A stretch of DNA of 64,000 nt from an uncultured Methanomicrobiales archaeon (GTDB lineage Archaea; Halobacteriota; Methanomicrobia; Methanomicrobiales; Methanospirillaceae). The position numbers and the translations under genes are program-made. The notes under the pieces were generated by a model. It made no database searches, was not told the DNA's origin, and saw nothing but the letters and a program-made list of their open reading frames with translations. Positions within the stretch are counted from its first letter, which is position 1; each line of letters opens with the position of its first letter. The stretch is from NCBI GenBank assembly GCA_963758915.1, contig CAVWXH010000003.1, positions 1 to 64,000 of the forward strand, read 5' to 3'. Below, piece after piece: positions 20,124-35,971 of the stretch.

Positions 20124-20232
20124 TCCACCCTGCTGTAACGTCAGCTCAAAATCCTTACCCGGATAATTTACAGATTGAGCGATGTCCGGTTTATCAAATA
20201 AAGGGGTTTAAACCCCGATTCAGGTTTAAACG

Positions 20233-21528
20233 TTATTGCCCTGTATTCCTCTTCCGGTAGATGAATACGTAATAAAGTGCCCCGATAACACCGGCAATAA
20301 TAATCGTTACAAGGATTGGGTTGGAGACAACAAGCCCGATCCCTGACCGGTTAATCACATTGATCTTTACCTTCATGGTATCAGAAATATGCGTAGTGTC
20401 AAGCGCATCCCGGTAGCGGATCTCCGAGTCGAGCCCGTATTCTTTCTTCGTCGCAGCCTTGTCAACACTCAGCTGGAAATGGGCAGTAGCATGGTCACCA
20501 GGTTCCAGGTCACCGAGGAACGCGACATCGTCAGTACTGGTGAAGGGGGCGAGGGTGCTGATTCTTGCCTGTGCACTATAGATAGTCGCTGCACCGGTGT
20601 TCTCATATTCGATATTGAACACGCCACTCGTCCCGGGATAGACGGTAATCGGCTCTGATATAATAGTTAGATCAACCTTTCCACCTACCGGGACACCAAA
20701 GATCACCGGGTCTGATGTCACCGTGTCACCATCCCTGTTCTCATACACCACGATCATATTCACCGGATAGGTCTTTGCAGCGGCATCCTTTGTGACCGTC
20801 ACCTTGTAACGGGTGGTTACCGTACTGTCCGGGGGAAAATCACCGATGAAAACACTGCTGTCAACCGGGACAACCGGGCTGGAACTGTCCCTGATAATCT
20901 TGATGACCGCGTTCTTCCCGTTCTCGAAGCCCTTGTTTTTTATGCTGAGGTTAAGGTACCCGTCATTTCCGGCATTCAGGTGCTCAGGCACTACATTTAG
21001 TACTTCTAACGTGACCAGCGGTTTGATTTTTAGCGGTACCTGGAAGGTCTCTGTTTTCTGACGATAATGGTAGATCATGCTGTCACCCCCGATCTGTTCC
21101 GCGTTATCAAGGTACGTGTAATTCAGTTCCAATGGGAGCATATATTCCCCGGGTGGTGCGTCGTTGCTTATCCTGGCGATAAATGGGACGGGTATGGAGG
21201 CACCTCCTGTGATATCCCCGACCATCTGCGGGTCTGATTTAATTACCAGTGGTGCTGAACCACTCCCAAGGCTGACTGTCGTAAGCTTGGCAGTATTTGG
21301 CTGATCAGTAGGACTGGCAAGCGTTGACTGGATAATTTTAATATCATTCAACCCTTTGTTCTGGACGATTACCGTGATCGTCGCATCTTTTCCCTGGCTG
21401 AATTCATTGATCCCGGATATCGTTGCCGTGAGATCGGGAGAGCCGGACATGTATTTTGTACCCGCCATTACCGGACTCGTAAAAAATGCCAGCAGAATTG
21501 CGATTATTAAAATATACTGCGTTTTCAT
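20233..21528 (-). CDS. COG1361 S-layer-domain family membrane-anchored protein
   Basis: Signal peptide, tandem Ig-like repeats, GLDSEIRYRD, C-terminal TM helix and basic tail. Confidence 0.85.
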   Translation of the reverse strand: MKTQYILIIAILLAFFTSPVMAGTKYMSGSPDLTATISGINEFSQGKDATITVIVQNKGLNDIKIIQSTLASPTDQPNTAKLTTVSLGSGSAPLVIKSDPQMVGDITGGASIPVPFIARISNDAPPGEYMLPLELNYTYLDNAEQIGGDSMIYHYRQKTETFQVPLKIKPLVTLEVLNVVPEHLNAGNDGYLNLSIKNKGFENGKNAVIKIIRDSSSPVVPVDSSVFIGDFPPDSTVTTRYKVTVTKDAAAKTYPVNMIVVYENRDGDTVTSDPVIFGVPVGGKVDLTIISEPITVYPGTSGVFNIEYENTGAATIYSAQARISTLAPFTSTDDVAFLGDLEPGDHATAHFQLSVDKAATKKEYGLDSEIRYRDALDTTHISDTMKVKINVINRSGIGLVVSNPILVTIIIAGVIGALYYVFIYRKRNTGQ

Positions 21529-21798
21529 GCCATACCGCCTGTTGTTATTGTTGTAACAACATTTGTTTCGGGGTAATATTAATACCTTGTTTTCTCTGCA
21601 GCTGATCTGATGAGCCGGCATATATGGCGCTTTCATTGGAGTTACGAAAATTTTTTTATAAAAAACGGCAGATCATCGGATTACAATCCAGAAAAACTGC
21701 ATTGTTTGGAGAATAATGCCGGGACTACCCCCATAAGAACGAATGAATGGGATCTACAGAGAACCATATATACCAGAATGACATGGTGAATATCATCC

Positions 21799-22134
21799 AT
21801 GACAACCAGCAACCCAGCGGACCTTATCGGTAAAACCTTCGAACCTGCCGGACTCATTGCCTACCAGGACGGGGCGGTAGTGAGCCGGACAATCGTATTC
21901 CAGAAAAGCGGTACAATCACCCTGTTCGCATTTGATGCAGGCGAAGGTCTTTCTGAACATACTGCCCCATTTGATGCCGTAGTGCAGGTGCTGGACGGGG
22001 AGGTGGAGATCACCATATCAGGAGAGAGATGCAACCTTGGACGGGGGCAGATGATCATCATGCCTGCCAACCAGCCTCATGCCCTGAAAGCACTGACAAA
22101 ATTTAAAATGATGCTCACCATGATCCACACCTGA
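21799..22134 (+). CDS. Cupin-domain protein
   Basis: GEGLSEHTAPFDA...MPANQPHAL. Confidence 0.88.
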   Translation: MTTSNPADLIGKTFEPAGLIAYQDGAVVSRTIVFQKSGTITLFAFDAGEGLSEHTAPFDAVVQVLDGEVEITISGERCNLGRGQMIIMPANQPHALKALTKFKMMLTMIHT

Positions 22135-22292
22135 CATGTTCCGGAGGGACTGCAGGGGATCCTGTTGATAGCAAATCAGTGAAGAATACAAAGCCGGGTG
22201 GAAACCTGGGCCGCCACCCGGGTAACACTTCATAGTATAGTAAAAAACAGGAGAAATCCGGTTATGCTCACGATAATAACAGGATTATTCAG

Positions 22293-22694
22293 TTATCCAT
22301 ACCCTGTGATATCATAATTTATTTCGGTCCTGTTCTTTGCGCAGGATTCACCATGTTCCAGTACTTCCTCGACCATTTTTTTTAGGATTGCCGGGTACAC
22401 CGCCCCGACAAGTTCAGATACCGGTTTACCGCTGCAGAAAAATTTGAAGGTGGGGGTACCCCGGACACCATATTTTTCTGCGGTCCATTGGTTTGTGAGG
22501 ATATTTAACCGTGCAAAAACGATGGTTCCTTTAAATTCCCTCGCATACTCGTGAAAAAATGGCTCCATGGTGTGGCAGTATGAACAGGACGGGGAATAGA
22601 ACATTACGACAACCGGTTTTTCTCCCTTTTCGATCGTCTTCTCCCATGTCTGATCATCGACCTCAACGAGTTCTTCTTGCTGCATCCCATTCAC
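22293..22694 (-). CDS. Thioredoxin-family protein
   Basis: FYSPSCSYC active site and GTPTF cis-Pro loop. Confidence 0.88.
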   Translation of the reverse strand: MNGMQQEELVEVDDQTWEKTIEKGEKPVVVMFYSPSCSYCHTMEPFFHEYAREFKGTIVFARLNILTNQWTAEKYGVRGTPTFKFFCSGKPVSELVGAVYPAILKKMVEEVLEHGESCAKNRTEINYDITGYG

Positions 22695-22962
22695 CAGTAA
22701 TGCTGGATATTGGATCTGAAGGGTTTATAGTTTGCTCAAACAGGCATTCAATCCGGATTGAGTAATTACTGGGTTTTTATTGCTGAATTGAGGGCACAAA
22801 AGGGATAATCCTGCATATCAATAGAATTCGAATCTTTAAATTTGCCCCTTTCTATGGCAGAAACATACTTCAATCTGGCTTATTAAAAAAATCCCCAATT
22901 ACAATTGTTTACACTGATTTGGCTCTTGGATGAGTTGGTTATTAATCTTATCAAAAAAAAAG

Positions 22963-23133
22963 TTAGTACCGGGGTTTCCTGTGTTTAGGAAGGCATTCCT
23001 GACAGTAAACTGGTCTCCCTTCGGTGGGTTTGAAGGGCACTTCACAATCCTTACCACAATCTGAACAGACTGTCTTTGTCATCTCACGAGGGCCGTAATT
23101 CCTTGGGCTCCCATAGCTTCTTCTCTCATTCAT
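22963..23133 (-). CDS. CxxC-x17-CxxC zinc-ribbon protein (56 aa, absent from the ORF track)
   Basis: Manual translation: MNERRSYGSPRNYGPREMTKTVCSDCGKDCEVPFKPTEGRPVYCQECLPKHRKPRY. Confidence 0.9.
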   Translation of the reverse strand: MNERRSYGSPRNYGPREMTKTVCSDCGKDCEVPFKPTEGRPVYCQECLPKHRKPRY

Positions 23134-23371
23134 TTGATTAACTCGTGCAGGTTTATATACTGCATGTAGTAATTAGCGGAACTAGTATAAAAAACAGGGT
23201 ATGTTGGAAGCACGCTGGTGAAAATTTAAAGGAAATTAATCCCGTTTCCTGTTCAAGGGGCAAGATAACATCATAATTAAAACAGCTGAATTCGATCTTA
23301 GAACTTTTCAGGATTGCAGGATTGCAAAGATTTTCCTGAAAATAAGAGGTCCTCCACAACGTTCTACGTTA

Positions 23372-25036
23372 TTACGAGATCTCCTGGATAATCCGCCCGT
23401 TGCGGAAGATTGAGATCTTTCCTCCACTCTGTGAAACGACGATCCCGATTGCATTCGTCACCTGTGTGATCCCTGCAACCGAGGCATGACGGGTCCCGAG
23501 TCCTTTCGGGATTTGCACATTGCTCATTTCTATGGTAATCCGGCGTGCTGCAGCCTCAATCAGGCCGTCCCCGCTGACAACGAATGCACCATCGAGCTGG
23601 GCGAGTTCCTTGATCATCTCCCTGATCTCGCAGTTCGTGATCATCCTGCTCTCTTTTGCATGCCCCTCAAACGGGTTTAAGATCATCTGCTTCGACTTCG
23701 CCATGACATTCGCGGCATCACCAATGATGAACGCGGTCCCAACAGATTTTCCCTCGCGTCCTTCCCGCGCAATCTCCATGCTGATATGAAAAGCCGCTTC
23801 AAATACTTCTTCTGCGACGTCGGTTCCTGCAAGCACTTTATCTTTCCACATTGCCATGCTAATCCGGATACGGTCATGACCCGAGTGGTTGGTGATATCA
23901 TTGCCGACGCAGAGTATTTCGGAGATTTTCCCGGATTCATCCCGAACCGGTTTGTTCGTCCAGGCAATCCATACCGTTTCCCCACCCCTGAGGATATTTT
24001 CATTTATATGGATGTCCCCCTCACTCCCGGACCGGGAGAGGTCACCCATCATGCTAATCACTTCTTTTGCAGAGTGCGAGGTTGGTGAAATAATCGTCCC
24101 GACAATACTTTTTCCGACCACTTCTGCCGCAGACCAGCCGAAAAATGCCTGTGCGGCCTTGTTGAAGAAGGTGATAGTCCCCTCGGCATCTACCTTCAGA
24201 ATAATACTCTGCGAGTCCTGGACAAGTTCGCGGTATTTAATTTCCGCCTGTTTCACCGCTTCGAGGAGCCTCACCCGTTCAGTTGTGTCCTCGGCTATAA
24301 ACGTGTCCCCTTTTGCCGGGTCAGAAGGGTCGACCGGCCTGATCCTCAGGCGGCAGTTGAACGTACTTCCATCCTTTCTGCGCAGTTCTGTATCAGCATT
24401 GCCCCACCCCTGCCCGTCGATCCGGATGGACAGTTCCCTGCAGGCACGGTCGTATTCTTCCCTGCCAGGGAAAATAACTGGCATTTCCTTATCGATAAGT
24501 TCCCCCTCGGTATACCCGAGCAACGTGCATATCGGTGTATTGACCCAGTCGAATTTCCCGTTTCTGACCCGGCTGATCGCCAGTGGTGTCGCAGAAAGTA
24601 ATGCATTCAGCATCTCGTAGCGGGAGTTCTGCTCCCGTTCCAGCCGCTTCCTGAGCACGGCCTGCTTAATGATGTCAAGGAGCTCAGAAAGCGGGGTGCG
24701 GGCAGTGACGACCATCTCTGATGCATAATTGATGTCTTCCAGTACCACCTTATTACCGGGATTTCGGGCGTAGATGATGAACGGCGTGGTATTCCCCTGC
24801 TGTTTTAAGTATTTGAGGAGCTCGACGCCATTCATGTCTCCAAGGAACTCAATCCCATCCACGACAGGCAGGTGATAATACGAAACAATCACATCGTAGG
24901 CCCGGTTTTTCAGGACCTCAAGGGCCTGCTTTGTCGAATTGACACTGTCCACGCGGACCTCCCCCATCCGCTCGAGATAGGACCGGGTTGCATCAATAAG
25001 TTCAGTATTGTCATGCACGAGAAGGACAGTAATCAT
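23372..25036 (-). CDS. Receiver-like/PAS/PAS diadenylate cyclase (DAC/DisA_N domain) fusion
   Basis: N-terminal REC fold, two PAS domains, C-terminal EGREGKSVGT...ELAQLDGAF...GLGTRHAS...VVSQSGG. Confidence 0.85.
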   Translation of the reverse strand: MITVLLVHDNTELIDATRSYLERMGEVRVDSVNSTKQALEVLKNRAYDVIVSYYHLPVVDGIEFLGDMNGVELLKYLKQQGNTTPFIIYARNPGNKVVLEDINYASEMVVTARTPLSELLDIIKQAVLRKRLEREQNSRYEMLNALLSATPLAISRVRNGKFDWVNTPICTLLGYTEGELIDKEMPVIFPGREEYDRACRELSIRIDGQGWGNADTELRRKDGSTFNCRLRIRPVDPSDPAKGDTFIAEDTTERVRLLEAVKQAEIKYRELVQDSQSIILKVDAEGTITFFNKAAQAFFGWSAAEVVGKSIVGTIISPTSHSAKEVISMMGDLSRSGSEGDIHINENILRGGETVWIAWTNKPVRDESGKISEILCVGNDITNHSGHDRIRISMAMWKDKVLAGTDVAEEVFEAAFHISMEIAREGREGKSVGTAFIIGDAANVMAKSKQMILNPFEGHAKESRMITNCEIREMIKELAQLDGAFVVSGDGLIEAAARRITIEMSNVQIPKGLGTRHASVAGITQVTNAIGIVVSQSGGKISIFRNGRIIQEIS

Positions 25037-25128
25037 GGGGCACCCATGGCCGGGACCAGCCGGGAATAGTACAGAATAATAGGGTATGAATGGATTAAAT
25101 AATTAGCGTTACCGGGAAATTTGAAAAA

Positions 25129-26593
25129 TTAATGGGTATATGACCTTCGATCCCTTGGCCCTGAGGACCGTTGCCCACCCCGGTTGTTACTTGCGGGGTG
25201 CGGACTCTTGTATGCCTCCCTTCTCCGGGGAGGACGGTTATTCCGCTCCCGCCTTTCATCATCCCTTGGAATCGGTGCCTGGGACGGGGAATCAATTTTT
25301 GGCCGGGCCTTGTCGGTCATAAACAGGAGCGCCGCAGCAATATCCAGTGAGGTGAACTCCTCGCCCATCATTGCCTGGGCACGCTGGCGGTAATTATCGA
25401 GGTCTTCCTTTTCGATCGCTTCCCTGATTTTTGTGAGTGCCTGCAGGGTCCGCTGCTCTTCAAGGTCCTGGTCACTCGGTATGAAGTCGGGGGTAATTCT
25501 TACGTTTGCATACCGCTGTATGTCACGGAGCTTCCAGACTTCTTTGCCGGAAACGAAGGTAAAGGAGCGTCCTGACCTTCCTGCACGTGCGGTCCTCCCG
25601 ATCCGGTGGACGTAATATTCAGGGTCCTGTGGAACATCGAAATTGAATACCGCTTCGATATCATCGATATCGATACCGCGGGCGGCGACATCAGTCGCGA
25701 TGAGGATGTCCGTCACACCGCTGCGGAACTTTGCCATTACCCGTTCGCGCTGGCTCTGGCTCATATCCCCGTGAAGGCCCTCTGCTGCGTAACCTCTCGA
25801 ATTCAGGCGGCTCGTAATTTCATCGACCCTCCGTTTGGTATTGCTGAACACCAGCGATAACTTGGGGTTATAGCGGTCAAGAAGCCGGCATAACGCCTCT
25901 ATCTTGTCACCCTCCCTCATTTCGTAGTAGAACTGCTCAATCGTTGGCACGGTGAGCTGTGCATGGACTACCTTGACATGTTTCGGTGTCCTCTGGTACT
26001 TCTTTGCCAGTTCCATGATGGGCGGGGCCATGGTTGCCGAGAACAGGACGGTCTGCCTTTTTTCGGGTATTCTCCCAAGAATATCCCCTATATCGTCACG
26101 GAACCCCATATCGAGCATTTCGTCTGCCTCATCAAGGACGACAACCTTAACATTGGAGAGGTCAAGTGACCGGCGGTGAAGGTGGTCGATGATCCGTCCC
26201 GGGTGTACCGATAACGACCTGTACACCTTTTTTCAGCGCGACGAGTTGCCGTTCGATTGGCTGGCCGCCGTAAACCGGGATGATCATGATACCCGGAAGG
26301 TACTTGCCAAGTTTCGCGAGCTCCTCGGAGACCTGGATGGCAAGTTCACGGGTCGGGCACATGACAAGGGCCTGCACCCGGCGGTCGTTCTGGTCAATTT
26401 TCCCCAGCAGCGGCAGGCCATAGGCAGCGGTCTTGCCGGACCCGGTATGGGCCTGGCCGATTACGTCGTGCCCCTCGATGAGCATGGGTATTGCCAGTGC
26501 CTGGATCGGCGTCGGTTCTTCGAACCCGAGGTCAGTGATAGCCTTCTCGAGCTCCTTTGACAGTTCAAGGTCAGGAAATGATATTGTTTTCAT
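25129..26593 (-). CDS. DEAD-box RNA helicase (frameshift near 26200)
   Basis: Q motif, AHTGSGKT, PTRELA, DEAD, SAT and HRIGRTAR motifs. Confidence 0.93.
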
Positions 26594-26769
26594 AGGTGGT
26601 TCACCATAGACCACTCCGGACCATGTAACTTCCAAGGATACGTGAGAATGTATGACCACTCGCAGAAAAATGAAATAATTGGCCCGTTTGATCGATGTTA
26701 CACATAGGTGCTCCCGGGTTAAGAGTGTTGGGGTGGAGGTAATGGTGATGCAAATGAACTTCGGACAGA

Positions 26770-26945
26770 ATCACAGCAATAGGGCAGGCGGGATCACCGA
26801 ATCTTATCCATTATTCATCCTTAATCCCCTGCACTCTTCCTCCTCGTCCCCGGCCTCCTCCTTTTGCCCCTCCATATACATCCAGCCGCCGATTACGAAT
26901 AAACGGGATGGCCTATCGGGATCGTATTACCAGCGGTGAAGCAAA
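26770..26945 (-). repeat. Gene-3'-end repeat, copy 1 (most degenerate)
   Basis: ccggcctcctccttttgcccctccatatacatccagccgccgattacgaata...gcctatcgggatcg. Confidence 0.9.
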
Positions 26946-27081
26946 TGAAACCTGATCATTGATTCAAGGCTATCGCAATTCTGGAGCGCATTAAAAAAGT
27001 AGAGCAGGGGGAGAACTCCGGATTCCTATTTAACAGAAAAGTGGATAGTTATAATAATTATAATTGTTATACCTAATATAT

Positions 27082-27276
27082 ATGTCACAGTCCGGATCAA
27101 CCACAATTGCCATCTCTGTAGAGACAAAGGAAATGATAAGGACACTTGGCGAAAAAGGTGAAACCTATGATGCAATAATTCGACGCATATTCCACAAAGT
27201 CGGAATGAAAGACCTTGATGCACGCTGGAATTCAATTCTCGAAAACGATGAGTTTCTTTCACTGGAAAATCTCTGA
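27082..27276 (+). CDS. Putative antitoxin (RHH-like, archaeal)
   Basis: TTIAISVETKEMIRTLGEKGETYDAIIRR with an acidic C-terminus; stop overlaps the toxin start. Confidence 0.8.
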   Translation: MSQSGSTTIAISVETKEMIRTLGEKGETYDAIIRRIFHKVGMKDLDARWNSILENDEFLSLENL

Positions 27277-27539
27277 TGTTTGAGATTATGGTTTCAAAAA
27301 CCTTTCAGAAACAGTTTCATTCACTTTCCCATGATGATCAGAAACGTATTCGACAAGGACTGCCAGTTCTGGCGGAAGATCCCTTTACCCCGAGATCTGG
27401 TGCAGATATAAAATCTTTACAACAGACATTACCAAAAAAATACCGGTTAAGAATCGGAGAAGTGAGAATTATTTATTCAATACGTGACGAAAAGATACTG
27501 ATTATCGAGGTATTCAGAAGGGGACAGGGATATTCCTGA
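27276..27539 (+). CDS. RelE/ParE-family toxin
   Basis: 87 aa basic protein, YRLRIGEVRIIY...RRGQGY. Confidence 0.88.
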   Translation: MFEIMVSKTFQKQFHSLSHDDQKRIRQGLPVLAEDPFTPRSGADIKSLQQTLPKKYRLRIGEVRIIYSIRDEKILIIEVFRRGQGYS

Positions 27540-27553
27540 TTATAGGGTTTACT

Positions 27554-27739
27554 ATCACAATTACAGTGAACAGGGGTGGGCGGGTGGGATCATACGAGCC
27601 TTACTCTGATTCCTCATCAATCTCCTGCACATCTTCATCCTCGTCCCAGGCCTCCTCTTTTCGCCCCTCCATATACATCCAGCCACCGATGACGAATAGC
27701 ACGGGAAGCCCTATCGGGATCGCTATGAACGGCGGCAAA
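27554..27739 (-). repeat. Gene-3'-end repeat, copy 2 (intact reading frame)
   Basis: Minus strand encodes LPPFIAIPIGLPVLFVIGGWMYMEGRKEEAWDEDEDVQEIDEESE*. Confidence 0.92.
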
Positions 27740-27919
27740 ACGGATGCGGTAATTTTGAATTGGATACATTTTCACCAACCATAATATTATAGAATTGAAA
27801 CAAGGAAAACGATAATTTTTGAGTCCCTTTTACAAAACAAAAAGTGATAGAATCAGGGTTGTCCGCACTTGATCAAATTGTACATATTTTAAATATTTAT
27901 CATGTTTACAATATGTATC

Positions 27920-28114
27920 ATGAATCTTACAAAAAGAATTCCCGTTACCGAATCGGTCTGGAAAGAACTCGCAGAGATGCGCTCCGCGGGGCAGACCTAT
28001 GATGAACTTCTTGCCGAGATGATCGACCTTCGCAAGAAACGCCGGCTCGTAGAAGATATCCGACATTCGATGGGGGAAGATGATTTTGTTCCGCTTTCGG
28101 AGATAATTGAGTGA
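27920..28114 (+). CDS. Putative antitoxin (RHH-like, archaeal)
   Basis: KRIPVTESVWKELAEMRSAGQTYDELLAEMI...DFVPLSEI; overlaps the toxin start. Confidence 0.8.
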   Translation: MNLTKRIPVTESVWKELAEMRSAGQTYDELLAEMIDLRKKRRLVEDIRHSMGEDDFVPLSEIIE

Positions 28115-28401
28115 GTTTCCAGGTCCTCATCAAACGGAAATCGGTTGATGCAATCAATGAGCTGCCTGGAAAGACCCGTCGGATTATCCATGATTCACTC
28201 AAGTCTCTTGAGCAGGACCCGTATCCAGGTGCCGGTGGTGACAAAGAGTTGCTGCATCATGAAGAGGGGATAGAAATTTACAGACTCCACATCGGGAGAA
28301 GTTATACCGCATTCTACACTATCGATAAGCCAGGCCGTGTTGTCCAGGTCCATGATATCATGACAATCGGACAGGCACATAAAAAATATGGCAGGGTTTA
28401 G
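28111..28401 (+). CDS. RelE/ParE-family toxin
   Basis: DPYPGAGGDKE...YRLHIGRSYTAFY...AHKKYG. Confidence 0.85.
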   Translation: MSFQVLIKRKSVDAINELPGKTRRIIHDSLKSLEQDPYPGAGGDKELLHHEEGIEIYRLHIGRSYTAFYTIDKPGRVVQVHDIMTIGQAHKKYGRV

Positions 28402-28550
28402 GAGAGATCCCTAGCCTATAAAAGGCTTTTATCTCCGGACCCCTTTTAATTGTTCCTAATTTCGTCCCTGCAATTACATTGCACACCAACAGTTCAACCA
28501 AACCCAAGACCATAAACCGACTGATATCGGAAACGTGGATAGTGCGATAA

Positions 28551-28735
28551 ATCACAAATACGGTAAACAGGGGTGGGAGGGTGGGAGTCGCAGGAGACTT
28601 ACTCTGATCCCTCACAAATCCCCTGCACCTCTTCATCCTCGTTCCCGGCCTCCTCCTTTCGCCCCTCCATATACATCCAGCCGCCGATTACGAATAGCAC
28701 GGGGAAGCCATTGGGATCGTATGAACGGCGGCAAA
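28551..28735 (-). repeat. Gene-3'-end repeat, copy 3
   Basis: atcacaaatacggtaaacaggggtgggagggtggga...ccatatacatccagccgccgattacgaatagcacgggg...gggatcgtatgaacggcggcaaa. Confidence 0.92.
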
Positions 28736-28766
28736 TGAGTAGTATCTCACGAATATTAAGTGTTAT

Positions 28767-28936
28767 ATCGCAAACACGGTAAACAGGGGTGGGAGGGTGG
28801 GATCACAGAACCTTACTCTGATCCCTCACCAATCTCCTGCACCTCTTCCTCCTCGTCTCCGGCCTCCTCCTTTTGCCCCTCCATATACATCCAGCCGCCG
28901 ATTACGAATAGCACGGGGAGGCCTATCGGGATCGCT
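28767..28936 (-). repeat. Gene-3'-end repeat, copy 4 (the current 3' end and downstream region of the membrane-protein gene)
   Basis: Same sequence as copies 1-3, but continuous with the upstream coding region. Confidence 0.92.
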
Positions 28937-29326
28937 GTGCCGGCAGGGCCGTGGAAAAGTGGACCGTATTTGAACAATTATTGAGAACAGGAATACGAGT
29001 CCTGAACAGAAAATAATAATTCCAGTCATTTTGGAAGAATATAACATATCGGATTTTATTGCGAATGTAGAGACCAGGGCAATAATCATTAAAATTGCCC
29101 CAAACATCCATAACCAGACAGATAATGCCGTCATGCCCGTGTAATACCCATAAATTATATAATTTATATTCTGAAAAATGCTGACATAATTATTGCTTAC
29201 ACTTTCCTGGTACAGGAAAAGGCTCCATTGGATACCAAATCCAAAATTTTTTCCAATAATGTAAAGGTTGAGAGGAATAAAAAATAAAAAAAAACAAAAC
29301 AACTGGCGAATCTGAACAGGCTTCAT
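28813..29326 (-). CDS. Hypothetical multi-pass membrane protein (1-nt frameshift near 28970)
   Basis: Hydrophobic ORF; removing one base gives ...IIVQYGPLFHGPAGTAIPIGLPVLFVIGGWMYMEGQKEEAGDEEEEVQEIGEGSE*. Confidence 0.78.
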
Positions 29327-29428
29327 GTATTTTAAATATTTAAGGAAAGGAGATATTAGTGTATCGATTATGCAAACAGGTCTGTATCAAACCTGAGTAC
29401 TCGTTTGATTAAAAATTAGTTATCCCCC

Positions 29429-30841
29429 ATGAAGCATGCCAGATAAATACCAGATTTGTCTTGATAAGCCTGGTTTTCATCGGAGCTGCGCTTCGGTTCT
29501 ACCACCTGGGTTTTAACTCCCTGTGGCTGGATGAAGCGTATACTTACCATTTTGCCCGGCTCTCCTTAAGCGAGTACTGGCAGATATTCCAAGGTGCTTC
29601 AGATTTTCATCCGCCTTTGTTTTACGACCTTGAAAAGATAGGGCTATTGTTTGGAAACAGCGAAAACAGTTTAAGAATCATTCCTGCCATTTTCGGGATT
29701 GCGGCAATCCCACTATTCTATTTGATCGGGAAAAAATTGTTTTGTCGTCCGGTTGGCATTATCATGGCTGGATTAATCACATTCTCACCCTTGAGCATTG
29801 CATATTCCCAGGAAGCCAGGATGTATACGATGCTTCTTTTTTTTATTTCCTTTGCGTCTTTTAATCTTTTTTGATGTAATTGAATCAAATTCCCAAAAAA
29901 AATGGGTACTGCTCGGGCTCATCTCCGCGATTGCATTGTGGGTACACTTTTATGCTTTTATTTTTGTAATTACTCTTTACTTCACGGCTCTTGTAATAGT
30001 TCATTTGGGACCGGAAGGATATCAGAAATATTGGTGTATTCCTTTATCATTTTTTTTGCTCTTTCATTGCCGGTTCTATCGATTGCACCGGCAATTCTTA
30101 ATGCCCGTGTATCAGGGAATGCCCCCACCTGGGGGGTAATAGGAATTGATTATGTGAGTGATCTGTTGATCACATTTTTTTCGAACTCTCCCGAAAGCCT
30201 TGTTGTCCTGGTTGGATTGTTTACACTTGGGATGGTTAATATCTTACTAATGAAAAGAAGGGTTATTTTTTATACTCGTAATGATACTGTCCCTTAAACG
30301 TTTTAACCGCAATAGTCCTTTCTTTTCGAATCCCGATTGTTGGAAGATATCTCATTTTTTTGCTCCCTCTGCTGTACATCGGAATTGCTTCTGTGTATTT
30401 TTCCTTTGACCGGAAGTGGAACAGGTATGTAATTGTGGGTATTATTCTGGTTTTTTTGATTGTAAATATCCCGCAATATGGTTTTTATTATACAAATACA
30501 ACAAAAGACAACTGGAGAGGGGCAACAGGGGAGTTGCAATCATGGCTGAACAGCAATGATACCATCGTGGTAATCCCGGGATACAATCAGATTACCATTT
30601 GAATACTACTATCGTAATACTTCAGATACCAGGGTACTTTACCTTTCATCCCTCGACGAATTAACTGCAATTCACGATAATTACAGCAATTTTTCAGGGG
30701 ATTCTCATTTTTACGCAGTTATTTCTCCTTTTCGATATTAAGGCAGTTGATCCAGACAATTCAATAATTTCATGGTTGGGAACACACGGGATGATAGAGG
30801 GGAGAATATAAAGGAATCCAGATATGGAATATTTCATCTAA
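29429..30841 (+). CDS. GT-C fold glycosyltransferase (GT39/PMT-like), heavily frameshifted; ends approximate
   Basis: LRFYHLGFNSLWLDEA, HPPLFY, YSQEARMY and KDNWR motifs; AT-rich. Confidence 0.75.
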
Positions 30842-31043
30842 TCTGAAGAGATCGACAATAACACTATGAAATCTATAAATCTCTGACAATGTTATCGATA
30901 GAATACACTGGCATCTTTTTTACGTAATCAGTTCCCAGGTGGTTAATCAATTTTGAATGAAAATGAAAGGAGCAAATATAATCGATCTAACAATTTATTT
31001 ACATTTATTTGATTACCTATTAAAAGAAAAAAAGGTTAATGGA

Positions 31044-31491
31044 TTATACAGTAGTATCGAGAACTACCTGTTCTGTTCCGTCATTGAATTTCGCAACAAC
31101 GATAATGTGTTCTCTCGTACCTGCAGTTTTACCTGGCATTCTCCAGGTTGTACCAACATTCGGCTTTAGTTGCGATTGCAGTGCCAGTAGCCAGAACAGT
31201 TCCACCGGCACCTGTTGTATGGAACACTGTTCCATTGTCCTTGTAGGTAATATTGAGTGAGGCCAGATCAGAATCATCAGGTCCACCATTATAGGTCGTT
31301 GTGAAATTCGACCCTGAAGTCCCGGCAGTGACTGCAATACTTCTTGTTTTACTAACGTTTCCTGCCATTCCGAACACGAATGCTGCAATCACTGCAGCGA
31401 GGATGACGGTAATTGCGACCATCAGGATGACACCGATGACCGGCGACACTGCATCCTCACTTCCCTTTCCAAATGTTGACATCTTCTTCAT
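31044..31491 (-). CDS. Archaeal type IV pilin (DUF1628/Pilin_N), frameshift near 31165
   Basis: Class III signal EDAVSPVIGVILMVAITVILAAVIAAFVFG; C-terminal VVAKFNDGTEQVVLDTTV in the second frame. Confidence 0.9.
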
Positions 31492-32116
31492 CTTACAACA
31501 CCTCGGTTGCTTACGCCTGCATCAACCGATGCAGCAACGTATGATAATGAGGTATTCTTTCTTGGTATAAATAAGTAGTTAACGTTCCATATAGTGTAAT
31601 TATCGGGTATTTTAAAATTCTGAACATTATTAGGGGTTATTTTTGATATGTGTCGCAAAATTGAATTTTTTATTGTAATCCATCATTGTAATGCATTGGG
31701 TGTAATGAATGACATGAATCTGATTCAATACACCCCCCTTTTACTCCGGTATCCCTGGAAGGGTTATCATGATGATAAATTATTGGAACCTGTCGTGCGC
31801 GGAGCGGAGAAATCTAAAGCAGGGGATTCTCCATAGACTTATACCTGTTTTCACCAGGTCATGACCGGAATACCGCATAATATGCCAGTTTTTCACCCGG
31901 AAATGCTTCAAAATCGAATCAATTGGGAGAATATTTGATAAACGGCAATATTTTGCCAGAATTGGATTCGGAGAGAAATGCCACCGGTACCTCGTTGTTT
32001 GCCGGGCTTTTGCATCGCATTTCGGACTGCTTTGTAGTAGTATTAGATAAAAGGTCAGGAATATGGAAAGCAGGGGCCGGAAAACAAGGGGATTTTGTCG
32101 AAAATCAGGGTTTCCA

Positions 32117-32374
32117 GGCTCTGTTGAAAAGTATATTCGGCATCCGGAATCCTGATTATTCTGAAATTTATCTACGCTCTCGGGGCTCCGCCCCGCCGCT
32201 GTGGCGCCCCGGTTGGGATAGAGAGATCCCCCAATACTCTGAATTTAATGAGCCTTCTGGAAACCCTGCCCGAAGAATATCTTAATGGGGGTGGGGCAGG
32301 GGGGGTGAAACCCCCTCCTGTCTTCGTATTTCCCTCTTATTTTTTTTATATCACCTAAGGGTTTCAACAAAGCC
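32117..32374 (+). mobile_element. Complete MITE (258 bp) with IS5/IS903-like TIRs and 8-bp TSD; repeat copy 3
   Basis: Left end GGCTCTGTTGAAA, right end TTTCAACAAAGCC (12/13 inverted match); GGTTTCCA directly repeated at 32109-32116 and 32375-32382. Confidence 0.88.
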
Positions 32375-32505
32375 GGTTTCCAGAATTCTTATGGAGGCAG
32401 GGCTGAGTAAAAAAATATATTGGGTAGAATTTTATTCAATGTCTGGGGCATCAGTAGGATCCGGAATTATTCCCGGAAATTGTCCATAGTAACCGGATAG
32501 TCGAC

Positions 32506-32733
32506 TTGCTGTATAGCCCCAGTGATGCGGAGGGCAATATCAGGGAGTTATGGATCCGGATGACAATTGAAACCCCTGATATGACAGAACAGAAGCTGGG
32601 CGGTACGATTCATTATATTCGTGCGATTAAGGAAAATGGAGAGAGGTATTTAGGAGTGATAGTAAACCCTGCTTTCGATCCGGCACTTGTGGTTCCAATG
32701 TTCTTTGACCGCGGATTGGGAAGATTGGTATGA
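32506..32733 (+). pseudogene. DUF4258-like toxin, apparently N-terminally truncated
   Basis: NIRELWIRMTIETPD...HYIRAI...VIVNP...FFDR; overlaps a DUF2283 gene; no convincing N-terminus. Confidence 0.6.
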
Positions 32734-32930
32734 AATTAAAAGTAGACGAAAAAAATGATGTTCTCTATCTTCGCCTCGACGAATCGAAGATAGTAGAATC
32801 TGAAGAAGTCCAGCCAGGTGTAATCCTTGACTTCGATGCCAATAATAATGTAATAGGAATCGAACTCCTCGGGGTAAGCAGGAGAGGGGCGCTTGATACG
32901 CTTAAAAATTTACAGTTCGAAACGGCTTGA
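32730..32930 (+). CDS. DUF2283 antitoxin-like protein
   Basis: DVLYLRL...ESEEVQPGVILDFD...VIGIELL. Confidence 0.85.
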   Translation: MKLKVDEKNDVLYLRLDESKIVESEEVQPGVILDFDANNNVIGIELLGVSRRGALDTLKNLQFETA

Positions 32931-33023
32931 ACCGAACGATAACCGGGTAATCATTCCTTCCCAGTAAAAAAAACTGAATCCAATAGCACCGGGAAAACAG
33001 AAATAGAAAAATTCCTCTCCCAC

Positions 33024-34091
33024 TTACCCGACCCGGTACCCGCCCTTCGGCACCGTAATCTCAAACCTGGCTCCCTTCCCTTCTTCGCCGGTCTCGGCAA
33101 CAGTCATCCCGGTCAGTGCAAGAATTTCTCTCGCAAGGTACAGCCCATACCCTCGTTTGCTTCCAAACCCGCGGGTGAAGATCCGTTCCTTGTCCCCGGC
33201 AGGCACACCTGCACCGTTGTCACAAAAAGCGATAACAAGTCCGACAGGTTGCTCTGAAGCAGTAATCGTGATCGTATTGGCCGTCTTTCCGTGGAGAACG
33301 GTATTTTCGATAAAATTCGAAATTATTTTCCTGATCAATGGGTCTGCGAAGACCCTGATCCCCGGGTTTATCCCGACTTCAACTTTCATCCCCGGGTGGT
33401 CGATGATCGACGCAGTCTCCCTGATCACCCCCGGCAGGTCAACCCACACCGGCACATTGACGCCGACATCCTGGTAGTCCTTGGTGAATGCAACCTGCCG
33501 GCGGATCGTCTCGGCCGCACCTTCTTCTCTTGCAATGAACTCTTTCAGCGTGTTGTCCGTAACCATATCGTGCGAAAGCTCAAGGTAGCCAAGGAGGATC
33601 GTCAACTGGTTCATAATGTCGTGGCGGCTGATACTATTGAACCGGTTAAGCATCAGGACTGCCGCATTTAGCGATTTTTCCGCACGTATCCGGTCAGAAA
33701 TATCACGGAATATTACCATTATCATCCCGGGATTGCCGGCAGACCCTGGGACAGGGGAGAGTACCGATTCGACTGCAGAGACAGATCCATCCTTTTTTTG
33801 TATAGTGAATTGCAAAGTCTCACCCGTCCGGGGAGAAAGGGCCCGGCCGGAGAATTCCTTGAACATGTTGTGATCGGTCGCAGCCAGGATATGAGTAATA
33901 TTCCTGCCTGAAAGTTCTTCTGCAGCCTGATAACCGGTAATTTCAAGCGCCTTCCGGTTTATGAGGAGAATAACCCCCGTAGTATCTACAATGACCATTG
34001 CATCCGGTCCCTGCTCAAAAACGGCCCGGTATAAATTACTATAATCTGGTTGCATCACGTCCCCCTTCCATTTGATTCCCTGGCTCTCCAC
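33024..34091 (-). CDS. PAS-domain sensor histidine kinase
   Basis: PAS domain, H-box RHDIMNQL, ENTVLHG, DNGAGV and GYGLYL. Confidence 0.9.
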   Translation of the reverse strand: MESQGIKWKGDVMQPDYSNLYRAVFEQGPDAMVIVDTTGVILLINRKALEITGYQAAEELSGRNITHILAATDHNMFKEFSGRALSPRTGETLQFTIQKKDGSVSAVESVLSPVPGSAGNPGMIMVIFRDISDRIRAEKSLNAAVLMLNRFNSISRHDIMNQLTILLGYLELSHDMVTDNTLKEFIAREEGAAETIRRQVAFTKDYQDVGVNVPVWVDLPGVIRETASIIDHPGMKVEVGINPGIRVFADPLIRKIISNFIENTVLHGKTANTITITASEQPVGLVIAFCDNGAGVPAGDKERIFTRGFGSKRGYGLYLAREILALTGMTVAETGEEGKGARFEITVPKGGYRVG

Positions 34092-34141
34092 TGCTACAAC
34101 AAATATCCGCAGGATGGATATAAATCATTCAGCCGATCATC

Positions 34142-34942
34142 TCATGGTCTGCCATATCCGGGATTTACCATATGGCATCCGCTTTTCGTCCTGCAGGATG
34201 TGCCAATGGCATGCCCGACAAACTCTTTTGCTGCAGCACATGCCGCAGGAACATCATCCCCCAGAGCGAGATGTGCCGTAATCGCTGCTGAAAGGCAGCA
34301 ACCGGTACCATGTGCATCAAACGGCAGCCGTTCCCCGGAGAAGAGCCATTCACGACCATGGCCTATTAACAGGTCAGGCACAACCCCGCTGACTTTTGAT
34401 AGGTGGCCCCCTTTCACCAGCACATACGCCGCACCCTCTTTCTGGATATACCGGCCCGCAGCACGCATATCGTCAACTGTTCTGATCGGCCCGTACCCTG
34501 AAAGCACTTCTGCCTCGGGAAGGTTTGGTGTAACCAGTGTCGCCATTGGAACGAGGTTTTTTATCAGATCGTTCAATGCCTCCGGCTCCATCAGGGGCCT
34601 TCCACTTGATGATACCATCACGGGGTCCACAACGAGGGGTATACCCTTCGGGACACCGCATACCACGGCAGCTACCGCCCCGCATTCGGGCAGCATCCCG
34701 GTCTTAAACGCCCTGATATCAAAATCTTCAAGCAGTGTTGCGAGTTGTAACCGTATGATATCCCCGGGTACGTTCCAGGCCCCCATGACATTTTTTGCAT
34801 TCTGGGAGGTCACTGCGGTGATTACGGACAGGCCCCACACCCCCAGTGCACTGAATGTTTTAATATCTGACTGGATACCAGCCCCGCCTGAAGGGTCAGA
34901 CCCGGCTATGGTGCAGGCACATGGTACCGCTGGCATCTCCAT
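34142..34942 (-). CDS. thiD: Hydroxymethylpyrimidine/phosphomethylpyrimidine kinase
   Basis: IAGSDPSGGAGIQSDIKT, DPVMVS, TPNLPEA, KGGH and HGTGC motifs. Confidence 0.93.
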   Translation of the reverse strand: MEMPAVPCACTIAGSDPSGGAGIQSDIKTFSALGVWGLSVITAVTSQNAKNVMGAWNVPGDIIRLQLATLLEDFDIRAFKTGMLPECGAVAAVVCGVPKGIPLVVDPVMVSSSGRPLMEPEALNDLIKNLVPMATLVTPNLPEAEVLSGYGPIRTVDDMRAAGRYIQKEGAAYVLVKGGHLSKVSGVVPDLLIGHGREWLFSGERLPFDAHGTGCCLSAAITAHLALGDDVPAACAAAKEFVGHAIGTSCRTKSGCHMVNPGYGRP

Positions 34943-35322
34943 GGCGAGAATTGAGAGGGCTTTACGCATGAACCTTTTCATTATAACCGGGGTCAGGGAA
35001 CATCATTGCCTGTTTATCGGGCATAAATGCATTCAAATGCACCATTTGTCATGGATCAGATCAGAGGTTTTTTTGTTCGGGGCCGGGTAATTATTGCGAT
35101 GGATGCGCTCCGGGGGACCCGCCGTTCAACATCCCGGTCATCCCAATAGCATGATGCCAGCATGACACACAGTTCATCGTCCTGTTGCGGGTATTTACGG
35201 CGATTTTAACCATTCCTGCTGAAATGATGGCCACTTCGTATAGGTTTAAGTATGCCGGGATCCAATAGAAAAAGCAACAGCGAGGCATCCAAATGCCTCC
35301 CGACTTTTGGAACTGAACCACC

Positions 35323-35784
35323 ATGACTTCACGTATGCTCGCTCCTCACACAACCTGCCCTGGATGCCAGGAGGAAGTATTCCTTGATGAGCTGGTCAGG
35401 GGCCGGTGTCCACTTTGCGGGTGCACACTTGAGGACTTCGTGGACCAGTCAGGGGATATGGACGAGATAGTAGAACGGAGCGATTTCTCATGGCTGGTAT
35501 TCAACTACTTTATCTTCAAGAAATTCGATGAACTGGGCGCAAACCCGCTGCAGGTAATGCAACTGATTGCCGGGCTTGACGAATGCTGCTTAAACCCGGG
35601 CCCTGGTGAGTTCCCACGGACGAAATTTGAATTCGACCTGCCGATGAACCTGAGTGACAAGGTAAAGCCTAAGAAGTGTTCACGGTGTGGAAGGGTCTTC
35701 TTCCGGGGTGGCAGGAAAGTTCTGTCCGGCGACCTGACCAGCCCGGAATTTGAGATCCGGTATCTCTGTTCCCGGGAATTGTGA
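35323..35784 (+). CDS. Conserved hypothetical Zn-binding protein
   Basis: CPGC, CPLC and CSRC motifs; followed by a T-rich terminator. Confidence 0.7.
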   Translation: MTSRMLAPHTTCPGCQEEVFLDELVRGRCPLCGCTLEDFVDQSGDMDEIVERSDFSWLVFNYFIFKKFDELGANPLQVMQLIAGLDECCLNPGPGEFPRTKFEFDLPMNLSDKVKPKKCSRCGRVFFRGGRKVLSGDLTSPEFEIRYLCSREL

Positions 35785-35971
35785 ACGGATTTTCATCTTT
35801 TTTTGCCTCTTTTTGGGCAACAGAAGCATCCGGATTAATGATGATCAGAAAATTTAGTTACCAGTCAACCCTTGCGAATATTTCTGATAGTCTAATAATG
35901 ATCGTGAAAACCGAAAACGATAGTGCAAGTTGAATCTCTCTAATATTTTTTAAACTGATGGAGTGGTATTC

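Follow-up and report, generated by a model that had tools for sequence, protein, structure and literature searches.

The attC sites of integrons are imperfect palindromes that fold as single-stranded hairpins, and tyrosine recombinases usually use an inverted-repeat core. In the orphan toxin/immunity arrays of CDI/Rhs systems, the conserved 5' part of each fragment leads into a new, variable toxin tip that can be swapped in. As far as the accessible parts of these papers go, integrase-less tandem islands at gene 3' ends are represented by the Dehalococcoides ssrA genomic islands (PMC3146451) and by IME/CIME accretion (PMC5704250). The search criterion for archaeal dif sites, as given in the accessible part of its source, is an 11–15-bp inverted repeat with a 4–10-bp spacer (PMC2958812). 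We analyzed a 64,000-nt stretch of DNA from an uncultured Methanomicrobiales archaeon (the window), in which a first-pass annotation had proposed an integrase-less array in which displaced copies of a gene 3' end separate toxin-antitoxin cassettes. The anatomy of the window and the comparison with relatives confirm this description, and the locus in relatives suggests a gene-collecting site that is integron-like but differently built.

Using a profile of the four copies, we located four direct copies of a ~185-nt segment on the reverse strand, at 26757–26935 (R1), 27546–27734 (R2), 28543–28730 (R3) and 28759–28944 (R4), with nhmmer scores of 171.6, 202.3, 200.1 and 207.1 bits, respectively. 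The four direct repeats of the annotation were also recovered by a repeat search, which gave a family with a 132-nt core, and by a BLAST search of the whole 2.38-Mb genome with the gene copy, which gave exactly four places at 86–90% identity (E-values 5e-98 for the copy itself, 9e-60, 2e-56 and 3e-39). Each copy consists of the last ~43 codons of a membrane-protein gene and ~54 nt downstream. R4 is the working 3' end of this gene (43 codons and the stop, with 54 nt downstream), and its frame is intact. R1, the distal orphan adjoining a DEAD-box gene, is a frameshifted relic of the 3' end, orphan R2 keeps a 40-codon frame with its stop, and orphan R3 is frameshifted. The identity to the gene copy is 75% for R1, 86.5% for R2 and 88% for R3. 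Thus, the distal copy is the most decayed, as first noted, with the qualification that R3 is broken by a frameshift too and that R2 alone among the orphans keeps the frame. It had also been claimed that all orphans break from the gene at the same point, after GGGATCG. A boundary does lie there, but the similarity to the gene fades over the next ~12 nt (..CGGCGG) and does not stop abruptly. The extra TATGAACGGCGGCAAA reported for copies 2 and 3 is present, but it turned out to be the start of a ~55-nt leader, which ends in TATC[AG]CAA and is carried by many orphan copies of relatives as well.

The repeats are separated by two filled intervals of 610 and 808 nt and by an "empty" interval of 28 nt between R3 and R4 (28731–28758), which holds leader sequence only. 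This agrees with the two antitoxin and RelE-type cassettes and the ~30-bp spacer of the annotation, the matches of cassette B being sub-threshold. In both filled intervals a small antitoxin-like gene overlaps a toxin gene, by 1 nt in cassette A and by 4 nt in cassette B; judged from domain matches and from the genes alone, this is the layout of type II ParE/RelE modules, in which a small toxin is preceded by an overlapping small antitoxin gene. Cassette A has a leader at 26925–26978, running from just past GGGATCG to TATCGCAA, which was delimited by the leader consensus and by aligning the cassette A regions of the window and of two relatives (G010 and G006); it accompanies cassette A in all three genomes. 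On the forward strand follow an antitoxin-like gene of 70 aa at 27064–27276 (Pfam DUF7557, E 2e-5, 24.3 bits, cut-off 25) and a toxin gene of 87 aa at 27276–27539, which belongs to the ParE/RelE superfamily (PF05016 ParE_toxin, E 9e-7, 29.9 bits, cut-off 23). Cassette B carries, on the same strand, an antitoxin-like gene of 70 aa at 27902–28114 (DUF7557, 18.6 bits, cut-off 25; VAPB_antitox, 19 bits, cut-off 27.9) and a ParE/RelE-like toxin gene of 96 aa at 28111–28401 (ParE_toxin, 21.9 bits, cut-off 23). Toxin A alone scores above its Pfam cut-off, and the other three cassette genes score below theirs. The cassette B antitoxin falls into one BLASTP cluster with antitoxin genes of five other arrays, and the cassette B toxin clusters with five homologues from other arrays.

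The membrane-protein gene (~170 codons, reverse strand, 28813–29326) is present as annotated, but translations and an alignment with five homologues show that it is not a single open frame. The frame of its body ends at 28826, and the conserved C-terminal frame occupies 28813–28977. Relative to the homologues, the gene carries one extra base at about 28964–28975, which places the frameshift ~20 nt upstream of the repeat; the extra base is absent from one public contig. The protein has a predicted four-helix claudin-like fold and no Pfam family. Its conserved partner is an archaeal type IV pilin-like gene located upstream (31129–31491, reverse strand), whose N-terminal 45 residues are near-identical to those of L035:2636–3076, a match to the NCBIfam archaellin/pilin N-terminal domain at 46.2 bits. 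At the distal end, the conserved flank of the array is a DEAD-box helicase gene (25129–26659, reverse strand, from its open reading frames), which is common to G006, G010 and G011; the alignment with G010 and G011 shows a 1-nt insertion at 26197 that interrupts its reading frame in the window.

The first-pass annotation had called for a comparison of the interval between the DEAD-box gene and the membrane-protein gene in relatives. This comparison fell out in its favor: G011 has no cassette, the number and order of cassettes differ in G006 and G010, and the boundaries are fixed. In G011 (contig C145), the pilin and membrane genes are followed by one repeat only, and the DEAD-box gene lies 125 nt beyond it. 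At or beside the same gene there are 4 copies in the window, at least 5 in G006, 13 in G010 and 18 on a single 12-kb contig of G012. The repeat is present in 6 of the 12 other same-genus genomes (Methanomicrobiales MAGs), and its profile was found on 17 of 23 metagenome stretches, which had been pre-selected by an exact pattern from the repeat. Such an architecture is seen repeatedly, in 6 MAGs and on 16 distinct metagenome contigs. The lengths of 85 intervals between repeats (the duplicate L072 left out) are bimodal, with 35 empty intervals of 18–104 nt and 50 filled ones of 543–4071 nt. Toxin-antitoxin genes occur in 44 of the 50 filled intervals: ParE/RelE in 16, HicAB in 14, PIN in 7, a VapB-like gene alone in 5 and HEPN-MNT in 2. 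Among the intervals listed, most kinds of cassette (HicAB, HEPN-MNT and ParE cassettes A, B and X) face the same way throughout with respect to the repeat, but PIN and a further ParE kind occur in both orientations.

The junctions of the cassettes are always the same two. Between genomes, the similarity of cassettes A and B breaks exactly at TATCACAA and GGGATCG, and that of cassette X and of HicAB (G006 compared with L082) breaks at the repeat edges. The flanking genes are 93–96% identical between genomes. Cassettes change neighbours between genomes. In the window, A follows the DEAD-box flank and precedes B; G010 and G006 have the reverse order, B,A, and in L085 the unit before A is empty. 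A duplication of the 3' part of the membrane gene (130–769 nt), 1.6–8 kb downstream, was also found in four further genomes, which belong to three other genera and families; the duplicates flank toxin-antitoxin or defence-like genes (AAA_21 with DUF4276, HicB, HepT-MNT, PIN, DUF3800). The frequency of the motif ATC[AG]C per 258-nt unit is 3.1 on one strand, 0.70 on the other and 0.60 in shuffled sequences, and its recurrences may be protein-binding sites.

As coding sequence, the orphan copies are mostly defunct. Of the 68 that cover the coding tail in full, 40 carry a frameshift and 9 a premature stop, 5 have lost the stop, and only 14 are intact; gene-joined copies are intact in 4 of the 7 that could be classed. 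The annotation had regarded the array as polar and serially growing. In the window and in one metagenome contig, copies farther from the gene are indeed less identical to the gene copy (rho -0.71, p 0.07), but this gradient is absent from the three other arrays tested (rho 0.04, 0.14 and -0.2), and the reversed order of A and B also speaks against polarity. The idea that each cassette brings a new gene 3' end lacks general support as well. We looked for the same repeat variants beside cassettes A and B across genomes and did not find them, whereas linkage between repeat and cassette is seen for X and HicAB; the picture is mixed. From GGTGGCTGGATG on, 163 of 165 positions agree between the gene copy and the first orphan in L070, where the units are arranged as a higher-order repeat of period 2. 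This near-identical pair and the period-2 repeat clearly indicate that homologous recombination is active in the arrays.

Six single-stranded DNA folds (R2 and R4, both strands) gave no attC-like folding, with z-scores from -0.79 to +1.64. A scan of 72 copies for a conserved inverted-repeat core gave an 8-of-10 inverted repeat at the stop codon in only 7 of them, three more in a neighbouring bin, one elsewhere and none at either junction. CRISPR repeats of 25–40 nt alternate with unique spacers of similar size; here the repeat is a gene fragment of ~185 nt, and the intervals hold genes or 18–104 nt of conserved leader. Thus, the repeats resemble neither attC sites nor CRISPR repeats, as had been stated. 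A known RNA family was rejected, the one Rfam match being sub-threshold (20.6 bits against 90). The same applies to a tRNA target, with no tRNA in 20000–36000, and to a viral or plasmid donor: one IMG/VR pattern match was unconfirmed by the repeat profile, and no integrase relative was found there. In public data, Logan contigs break at the repeats. Run X1 gave one weak joint with 30-nt sides from 26747 to 28768, which skips both cassettes, and one back-joint from 27723 to 26933. Public reads contained no excised circle or clean gain/loss variant, but the raw-read runs gave just 3 and 0 reads.

The absence of an integrase from the window was upheld for tyrosine recombinases. All PF00589 matches in the genome of the window (G000) lie outside it, at 81.6 kb of the same contig (C3), on C18 and on C5; no serine recombinase was found in G000. 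The match on C3 (81.6–82.4 kb; L058:1402–2355) is a XerA, with 281.9 bits for XerA_Arch against an NCBIfam cut-off of 220. In G010, a 416-aa Phage_integrase protein (PF00589, E 4e-16) is the sole gene of a 1646-nt interval between two repeat copies on contig C72, beside a paralogue of the membrane gene. This is the only one of the 50 filled intervals that contains an integrase. Its edges differ from those of the cassettes: the distal copy runs ~100 codons into a gene fragment, and the proximal copy is without the first 41 model positions. On the integron-integrase model TIGR02249 the protein scores 15.9 bits against a cut-off of 265. Its family has no match at E<=1e-5 in G000, G005, G006 and G011 and was found in G009, a genome free of the repeat; 3 of 6 array genomes have it, compared with 1–2 of 7 array-free genomes. 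Close relatives of the C18 integrase of G000 occur in G005, G009, G002 and G012 and are absent from G006. None of the other 19 integrase-homologue loci examined adjoins the repeat or the membrane gene. For the co-occurrence with a tyrosine or serine recombinase, which the annotation had proposed to check, there is one integrase between repeats and no pattern across the few genomes, which are incomplete MAGs.

We favor, with a probability of about 55%, the reading that cassettes were inserted site-specifically at the 3' end of a gene and that homologous recombination then rearranged the array, which became enriched for addictive modules. In this view, the final ~43 codons of the membrane gene and ~54 nt downstream would serve as a recombination or attachment region, and small DNA modules would enter at two fixed junctions, one just past GGGATCG within the coding tail and the other at TATC[AG]CAA, ~45 nt past the stop codon. 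Every insertion would add one ~185-nt copy, so that repeats and cassettes alternate; the gene would stay whole through the copy attached to its body, and the remaining copies are decaying relics. The cassettes are units of ~0.55–1.25 kb with their own ~55-nt leader, nearly all of them type II toxin-antitoxin pairs. Since they encode no recombinase, they would have to be moved in trans. The likeliest agent may be a tyrosine recombinase like the one found alone between two repeat copies in G010, and the alternative is the host XerA. After insertion, unequal crossing-over between copies would duplicate, delete and reorder units, and addictive toxin-antitoxin modules would be those that survive between direct repeats. 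The array of the window is small, two of its three orphans are broken, and the genome (94% complete, 18 contigs) is without the cognate integrase; therefore, this array is probably quiescent or reliant on an incoming recombinase. Several observations were weighed against site-specific insertion: no inverted-repeat core of the kind usual for tyrosine recombinases, a single integrase link with different edges, repeat variants that differ beside A and B, and active homologous recombination. A broader proposal, which we put forward only tentatively, is a second, independently evolved archaeal cassette-capture platform. In it, a gene 3' end would act as a double-stranded attachment site copied with each insertion, leader-bearing toxin-antitoxin or defence cassettes would be moved in trans by a cassette-borne tyrosine recombinase, and the same tail would be a hotspot across several Methanomicrobiales families.

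It is also possible, though unlikely, that homologous recombination alone built the arrays. One ancient 3'-end duplication would have been followed by growth, loss and exchange of units through gene conversion, unequal crossing-over and the homologous capture of relatives' DNA, with the ~185-nt copies as portable homology and no dedicated recombinase; toxin-antitoxin pairs would accumulate as their loss is punished. The 99%-identical gene/orphan pair and period-2 repeat of L070 fit this explanation, as do the window copies R2–R4, which are mutual nearest relatives, the three of six array-bearing genomes without the repeat-associated integrase family, the absent inverted-repeat core and the frequency of tandem empty units (35/85). 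However, homologous recombination cannot repeatedly put unrelated genes at the same two nucleotide positions. The similarity of cassettes A and B ends at the repeat edges and not within the repeats, and the adjoining repeat sequence already differs. The copies of G010 are only 61–81% identical to the gene copy; they are therefore not homogenised and would be poor substrates. Moreover, crossing-over of flanking copies leaves one copy and not the repeat-leader-repeat units that we observe.

Modules driven by the host Xer system, with XerA acting on dif-like sites at the repeat edges in the manner of Acinetobacter pdif modules or IMEX, are improbable. The genome has an above-cut-off XerA on the very contig of the array, units of repeat and cassette alternate strictly, and the cassettes are small, integrase-less and rich in toxin-antitoxin genes like pdif modules, as described in the accessible parts of the reports (PMC13141974, PMC6449649). 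Nevertheless, no dif-like site by the archaeal criterion is conserved in the repeat among the 72 copies, the criterion being taken as the accessible part of its source words it (PMC2958812). A role of the repeats within the toxin-antitoxin modules, as functional genes (for instance for a 45-aa membrane peptide as a third component) or as regulatory elements, is very improbable. R2 does have a 45-codon open reading frame with a TTG start, and the copies vary most at third codon positions (entropy 0.76, against 0.49 at first and 0.58 at second positions), but this pattern is expected of variation inherited from once-functional gene ends, just 14 of the 68 full-tail orphans are intact, and empty units have no toxin-antitoxin partner. 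Least credible of all is a classical integron remnant (CALIN) or an assembly artefact. The layout is array-like and toxin-antitoxin-rich with no adjacent integrase, and most reported archaeal integrons are CALINs according to the accessible part of PMC9668308. Against a CALIN, the folds and the inverted-repeat scan gave no hairpin-forming attC, the associated integrase is far below the integron-integrase cut-off, and the repeat belongs to a protein-coding gene. The recurrence in 6 MAGs and 16 contigs means that the array is not a misassembly of the window's genome.

Full-text literature searches found no published description of such an array; supplementary tables might list such loci. In their accessible parts, neither the archaeal integron paper (PMC9668308) nor a review of archaeal tyrosine recombinases mentions Methanomicrobia. 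If site-specific capture is the true explanation, methanogens collect genes at a locus comparable in its working to an integron or a tandem-island site but made of different parts, namely a long non-palindromic attachment site inside a protein-coding gene, tiny cassettes that are almost all toxin-antitoxin pairs, and a recombinase that is usually absent. Cassette arrays would then have evolved more than once, and the locus would be a clean natural system in which to ask why addictive modules accumulate between direct repeats. It would also be a predictable toxin-antitoxin and defence hotspot in an environmentally important archaeal order, and could provide a site-specific integration target for methanogen genetics.

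In comparison with known systems, the array shares features with each and differs from all. Like integrons and CALINs, including archaeal ones (Ghaly et al. 2022, PMC9668308), as far as the accessible text describes them, it has small integrase-less cassettes between recurring recombination-type repeats; close relatives differ in which cassettes they carry and in what order, toxin-antitoxin modules figure prominently, and arrays often have no adjacent integrase. Unlike the 50–150-nt hairpin-forming attC, the ~185-nt repeat is double-stranded, non-palindromic and a host gene 3' end. The methanogen array has no attI, intI or Pc platform, its cassettes are mostly two-gene, with PIN and one ParE kind in both orientations, its linked integrase is not IntI-like, and many of its intervals are empty. 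In tandem 3'-end islands, according to the accessible parts of the sources, the target gene stays intact and its 3' end recurs as a direct repeat at the boundaries of every element; several elements lie in tandem downstream in strain-variable number, some without an integration module. The same is seen here, and, as in IME/CIME accretion, direct repeats of the 3' end accompany a whole gene and the site is unoccupied in a relative (G011). However, the methanogen units measure 0.55–1.25 kb against many kb, and the repeat ~185 nt against 20 bp in the same sources. The target is an archaeal protein-coding gene, 49 of the 50 filled units have no integrase, the content is almost only toxin-antitoxin pairs, and the order is shuffled without clear polarity. 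XerC/XerD-moved Acinetobacter pdif modules are likewise small, recombinase-less and often toxin-antitoxin; they are bounded by short recombination sites, shuffled between replicons, and of two alternating types, in the accessible parts of their descriptions (PMC13141974, PMC6449649). Their sites, by the same accounts, are 28-bp dif-like inverted repeats on plasmids, none of which is conserved in the methanogen repeat, and the methanogen array is chromosomal and anchored in a gene. As in CDI/Rhs arrays, fragments of a gene's end recur downstream of the complete gene and alternate with small genes, but in the methanogen the repeated part is the very C-terminus, which is conserved and followed by no variable portion, and the intervening genes are free-standing toxin-antitoxin pairs, often on the other strand.

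The four direct repeats claimed by the first-pass annotation are real and far beyond chance. A BLAST search of the whole 2.38-Mb, 18-contig genome with the gene-joined copy gave matches at these four places only, with E values from 5e-98 to 3e-39. With a profile built from the four copies, the orphan repeats R1, R2 and R3 were placed at 26757-26935, 27546-27734 and 28543-28730. R4, at 28759-28944, is the 3' end of the minus-strand membrane gene and consists of 43 codons, the stop codon (28813-28815) and 54 nt downstream. The 610-nt interval R1-R2 (cassette A) contains two overlapping genes, one DUF7557-like (70 aa) and the other for a ParE_toxin (87 aa). The 808-nt interval R2-R3 (cassette B) contains a second pair, of 70 and 96 aa, dissimilar to the first, and 28 nt separate R3 from R4. 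Of the four cassette-gene matches, that of the first toxin alone passes Pfam's own cut-off, and the rest fall just under it; BLASTP clusters contain homologues of both pairs from other arrays.

A unit consensus was derived by aligning 36 good copies, taken from several sources. On the plus strand, it reads TATCGCAA, about 12 nt and GGGGTGGGNGGG..GGGATCACAGA, then the stop codon. There follow 40 codons for ...IPIGLPVLFVIGGWMYMEG and an acidic tail, GGGATCG, 4 nt and GAACGGCGG. In orphan copies the next element is a leader of about 55 nt (..AACGAGTGAGATCGCAAAAGTTGAT..), which in some of them closes with a second TATC[AG]C[ATC]A. Of 87 orphans, 31 have a loose form of this motif 20-75 nt beyond the repeat; shuffles predict 2.0. 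The 16 nt described as extra in copies 2 and 3 are present, but they are the start of this common leader. The motif ATC[AG]C has a frequency of 3.1 per 258-nt unit on one strand, compared to 0.70 on the other and 0.60 in shuffles; since the copies are homologous, this recurrence represents only about five independent positions.

The repeat was found in six of the 12 other same-genus genomes, and other genera gave two matches, both very short; all genomes are metagenome-assembled, 65-98% complete, and the profile, built from the window's copies, under-scores diverged arrays. A degenerate repeat pattern retrieved 23 metagenome stretches, and 17 of them carry the repeat, one being a duplicate of another; these contigs may overlap the samples of the assembled genomes. 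As the annotation expected, the number and content of cassettes between the DEAD-box gene and the membrane gene vary among relatives. G011 has an unoccupied site consisting of the pilin-like gene, the membrane gene, one repeat and the DEAD-box gene. In its gene-joined copy (L035:3498-3606), an in-frame TAG eight codons ahead of the usual stop shortens the acidic tail. In G006 the order is DEAD-box, repeat, B, repeat, A, repeat, HEPN-MNT, repeat, HicAB, repeat and contig end. G010 has 13 copies, its cassettes being, in order, X (ParE), Y (VapB-like), B, A, a further RelE-like pair, HicAB, three empty units and a 517-aa PMT_2 glycosyltransferase, and G012 has 18 copies on a single 12-kb contig. 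The array is real and recurrent.

The lengths of the 85 repeat-to-repeat intervals from all sources are bimodal: 35 measure 18-104 nt and 50 measure 543-4071 nt. Using a Pfam scan of cluster representatives, extended through BLASTP clusters, we found toxin-antitoxin genes in 44 of the 50 filled intervals. ParE/RelE was assigned to 16, HicAB to 14, PIN to seven, HEPN-MNT to two and a VapB-like gene alone to five; two had no Pfam match, and four held other contents (an integrase, a glycosyltransferase, a SWIM protein and a 4-kb block). Among the intervals listed, orientation relative to the repeat is constant for most cassette kinds, and PIN and one ParE kind occur both ways. The 4-kb block, on G010:C15 (L031:7260-11546), has five or six genes. 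On either side of it is a partial repeat copy, the two being complementary (model positions 3-108 and 81-189), which gives the impression of an insertion into a repeat. Its last gene, the only one scanned, has an acylphosphatase-like match; by the look of the N-termini, the block may consist of dTDP-sugar (sugar-nucleotide) synthesis genes.

The annotation had treated the membrane gene (28813-29326, minus) as one gene. This does not hold for the window, where one extra base at about 28964-28975, compared to five homologues, breaks the frame: the body frame stops at 28826, and the conserved tail frame occupies 28813-28977. A public contig (run X1, depth 4.5) has no extra base and would read through, so the break may be due to misassembly or to strain variation. 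The DEAD-box gene (25129-26659, minus) is likewise split into two ORFs by a 1-nt insertion at 26197 when compared to G010 and G011. A PMT_2-like glycosyltransferase at 29461-30602 (plus) is spread across at least three overlapping frames and shares only 39% identity with the intact 517-aa PMT_2 cassette of G010 (L031:14144-15697). Taken together, the three breaks suggest consensus errors of the assembly or real decay.

No family was found for the membrane protein in Pfam or NCBIfam; its predicted fold is four-helix and claudin-like. Among 61 Methanomicrobiales genomes, 33 have its gene, which is spread over 14 of 31 genera and usually lies downstream of a type IV pilin-like gene. Across the housekeeping flanks, identity among the window, G010 and G006 is 93-96%. 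Despite this, BLASTN gave no alignment of the membrane-gene body between the window and G010, conservation being limited to the last ~55 codons. Both this body and the part of the pilin-like gene that encodes its C-terminus are unalignable as DNA (window 28945-31325, L031:15990-16800). From the DEAD-box gene as far as the N-terminus of the pilin, the whole region is a hypervariable island, which could be due to surface-protein diversification or allele replacement. Four genomes, which belong to three other genera and families, have a repeat of the membrane-gene 3' part (130-769 nt) 1.6-8 kb downstream, with AAA_21+DUF4276, HicB, HepT-MNT, PIN, DUF3800 or DUF4351 genes between the duplicates. 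Judging by these duplicates, the membrane-gene tail is probably a general insertion hotspot in Methanomicrobiales. Two such loci from another family, L106 (G038:C1:2069970-2074590) and L104 (G043:C1), have duplicated 3' parts around defence/toxin-type genes: an AAA_21/AAA_15 ATPase and DUF4276 pair, HicB, HepT-MNT and PIN. One of these duplications is 769 nt long at 95% identity.

Orphan copies are relics. By profile alignment, which makes the classes approximate, the 104 orphans comprise 36 partial, 40 frameshifted, nine with premature stops, five with the stop lost and 14 intact copies. Variation among copies is highest at codon position 3 (entropy 0.49, 0.58 and 0.76 for positions 1, 2 and 3), which is consistent with ends diverging during use. 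The claimed decay with distance from the gene is seen in the window (identity to the gene copy 88, 86.5 and 75%, the last in the distal copy) and in the metagenome contig L070 (rho -0.71, p 0.07), but not in G010 (rho 0.04), G012 (0.14) or G006 (-0.2).

Despite the similar flanks, cassette order differs: A,B in the window, B,A in G010 and G006; cassette A is 94-97% identical. Between genomes, similarity of A and of B spans the leader and genes. Its exact limits are GGGATCG at one end and TATCACAA at the other, and the repeats directly adjoining the cassettes already differ. Across genomes, the copies beside A, or beside B, do not pair as nearest relatives; R2-R4 are closest to each other. Cassette X is accompanied by a truncated repeat in three sources, and HicAB of G006 and of contig L082 share both flanking repeats (95%), with similarity stopping at the outer repeat edge. 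The idea that each cassette brings its own gene 3' end lacks general support: repeat and cassette are linked in X and HicAB and not in A and B. These comparisons place the breakpoints at the repeat edges and show a mixed repeat-cassette linkage. Recombination without a dedicated enzyme would agree with L070, where, starting at GGTGGCTGGATG, 163 of 165 positions match between the gene copy and the first orphan and the array has the structure of a two-unit higher-order repeat, indicating recent unequal crossing-over or gene conversion. As an account of the whole array it is nevertheless doubtful, because the ends of A and B lie at fixed motifs beside repeats that already differ.

There is no recombinase in the window, in line with the annotation, which saw no integrase. 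The genome (G000) encodes XerA on the same contig, about 52 kb from the array (C3:81654-82400; 281.9 bits, cut-off 220), and this host enzyme could be the agent; we consider this improbable, since no dif-like site is conserved in the repeat. C18 carries a 400-aa tyrosine recombinase and C5 a broken one; no serine recombinase was found in this genome. G010:C72 has a 1646-nt interval, bounded by a repeat copy on each side, whose sole gene encodes a 416-aa Phage_integrase protein (E 4e-16). The interval adjoins a 179-aa membrane-gene paralogue, and the distal copy extends into a ~100-codon gene fragment. This 3' fragment comes from another allele of the membrane gene; the locus (L034:3400-5900) has an AlbA_2/HATPase_c_4 gene on one side and, presumably, cas5/cas6-like genes on the other. 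Scoring against the integron-integrase family rejected this protein as an integron integrase. Its family is present in G002, G009, G010 and G012, with no match at E<=1e-5 in G000, G005, G006 or G011; none of the other homologues examined adjoins a repeat or membrane gene, and BLASTP shows no relation to the C18 enzyme (E 0.08). As to the proposed co-occurrence, no recombinase family tracks the arrays in this small set of incomplete assemblies. We favor, at a probability of roughly 55%, site-specific insertion of modules at two fixed junctions in the membrane-gene tail. Insertion would be catalysed in trans, homologous reshuffling would follow, and addictive modules would be retained.

We found no description of such a layout in the literature. 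The main texts of the archaeal integron paper (PMC9668308) and of an archaeal tyrosine-recombinase review do not mention Methanomicrobia; their supplements may differ. Small toxin-antitoxin modules without a recombinase are also known as pdif modules (available portions of PMC13141974 and PMC6449649), which differ from our array in their dif-like site. In its working, the array is closest to the integron/CALIN and to tandem islands at a gene 3' end with integrase-less members, such as those at Dehalococcoides ssrA (available portion of PMC3146451). As defined, it belongs to neither. Integrons have an attC hairpin and IntI; the array has neither, and fold and inverted-repeat tests agree with the annotation that the repeats are not attC-like. 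In the tandem islands, as far as the available text goes, the units are about ten times larger and the repeat about ten times shorter than here, where 49 of 50 filled units are without an integrase.
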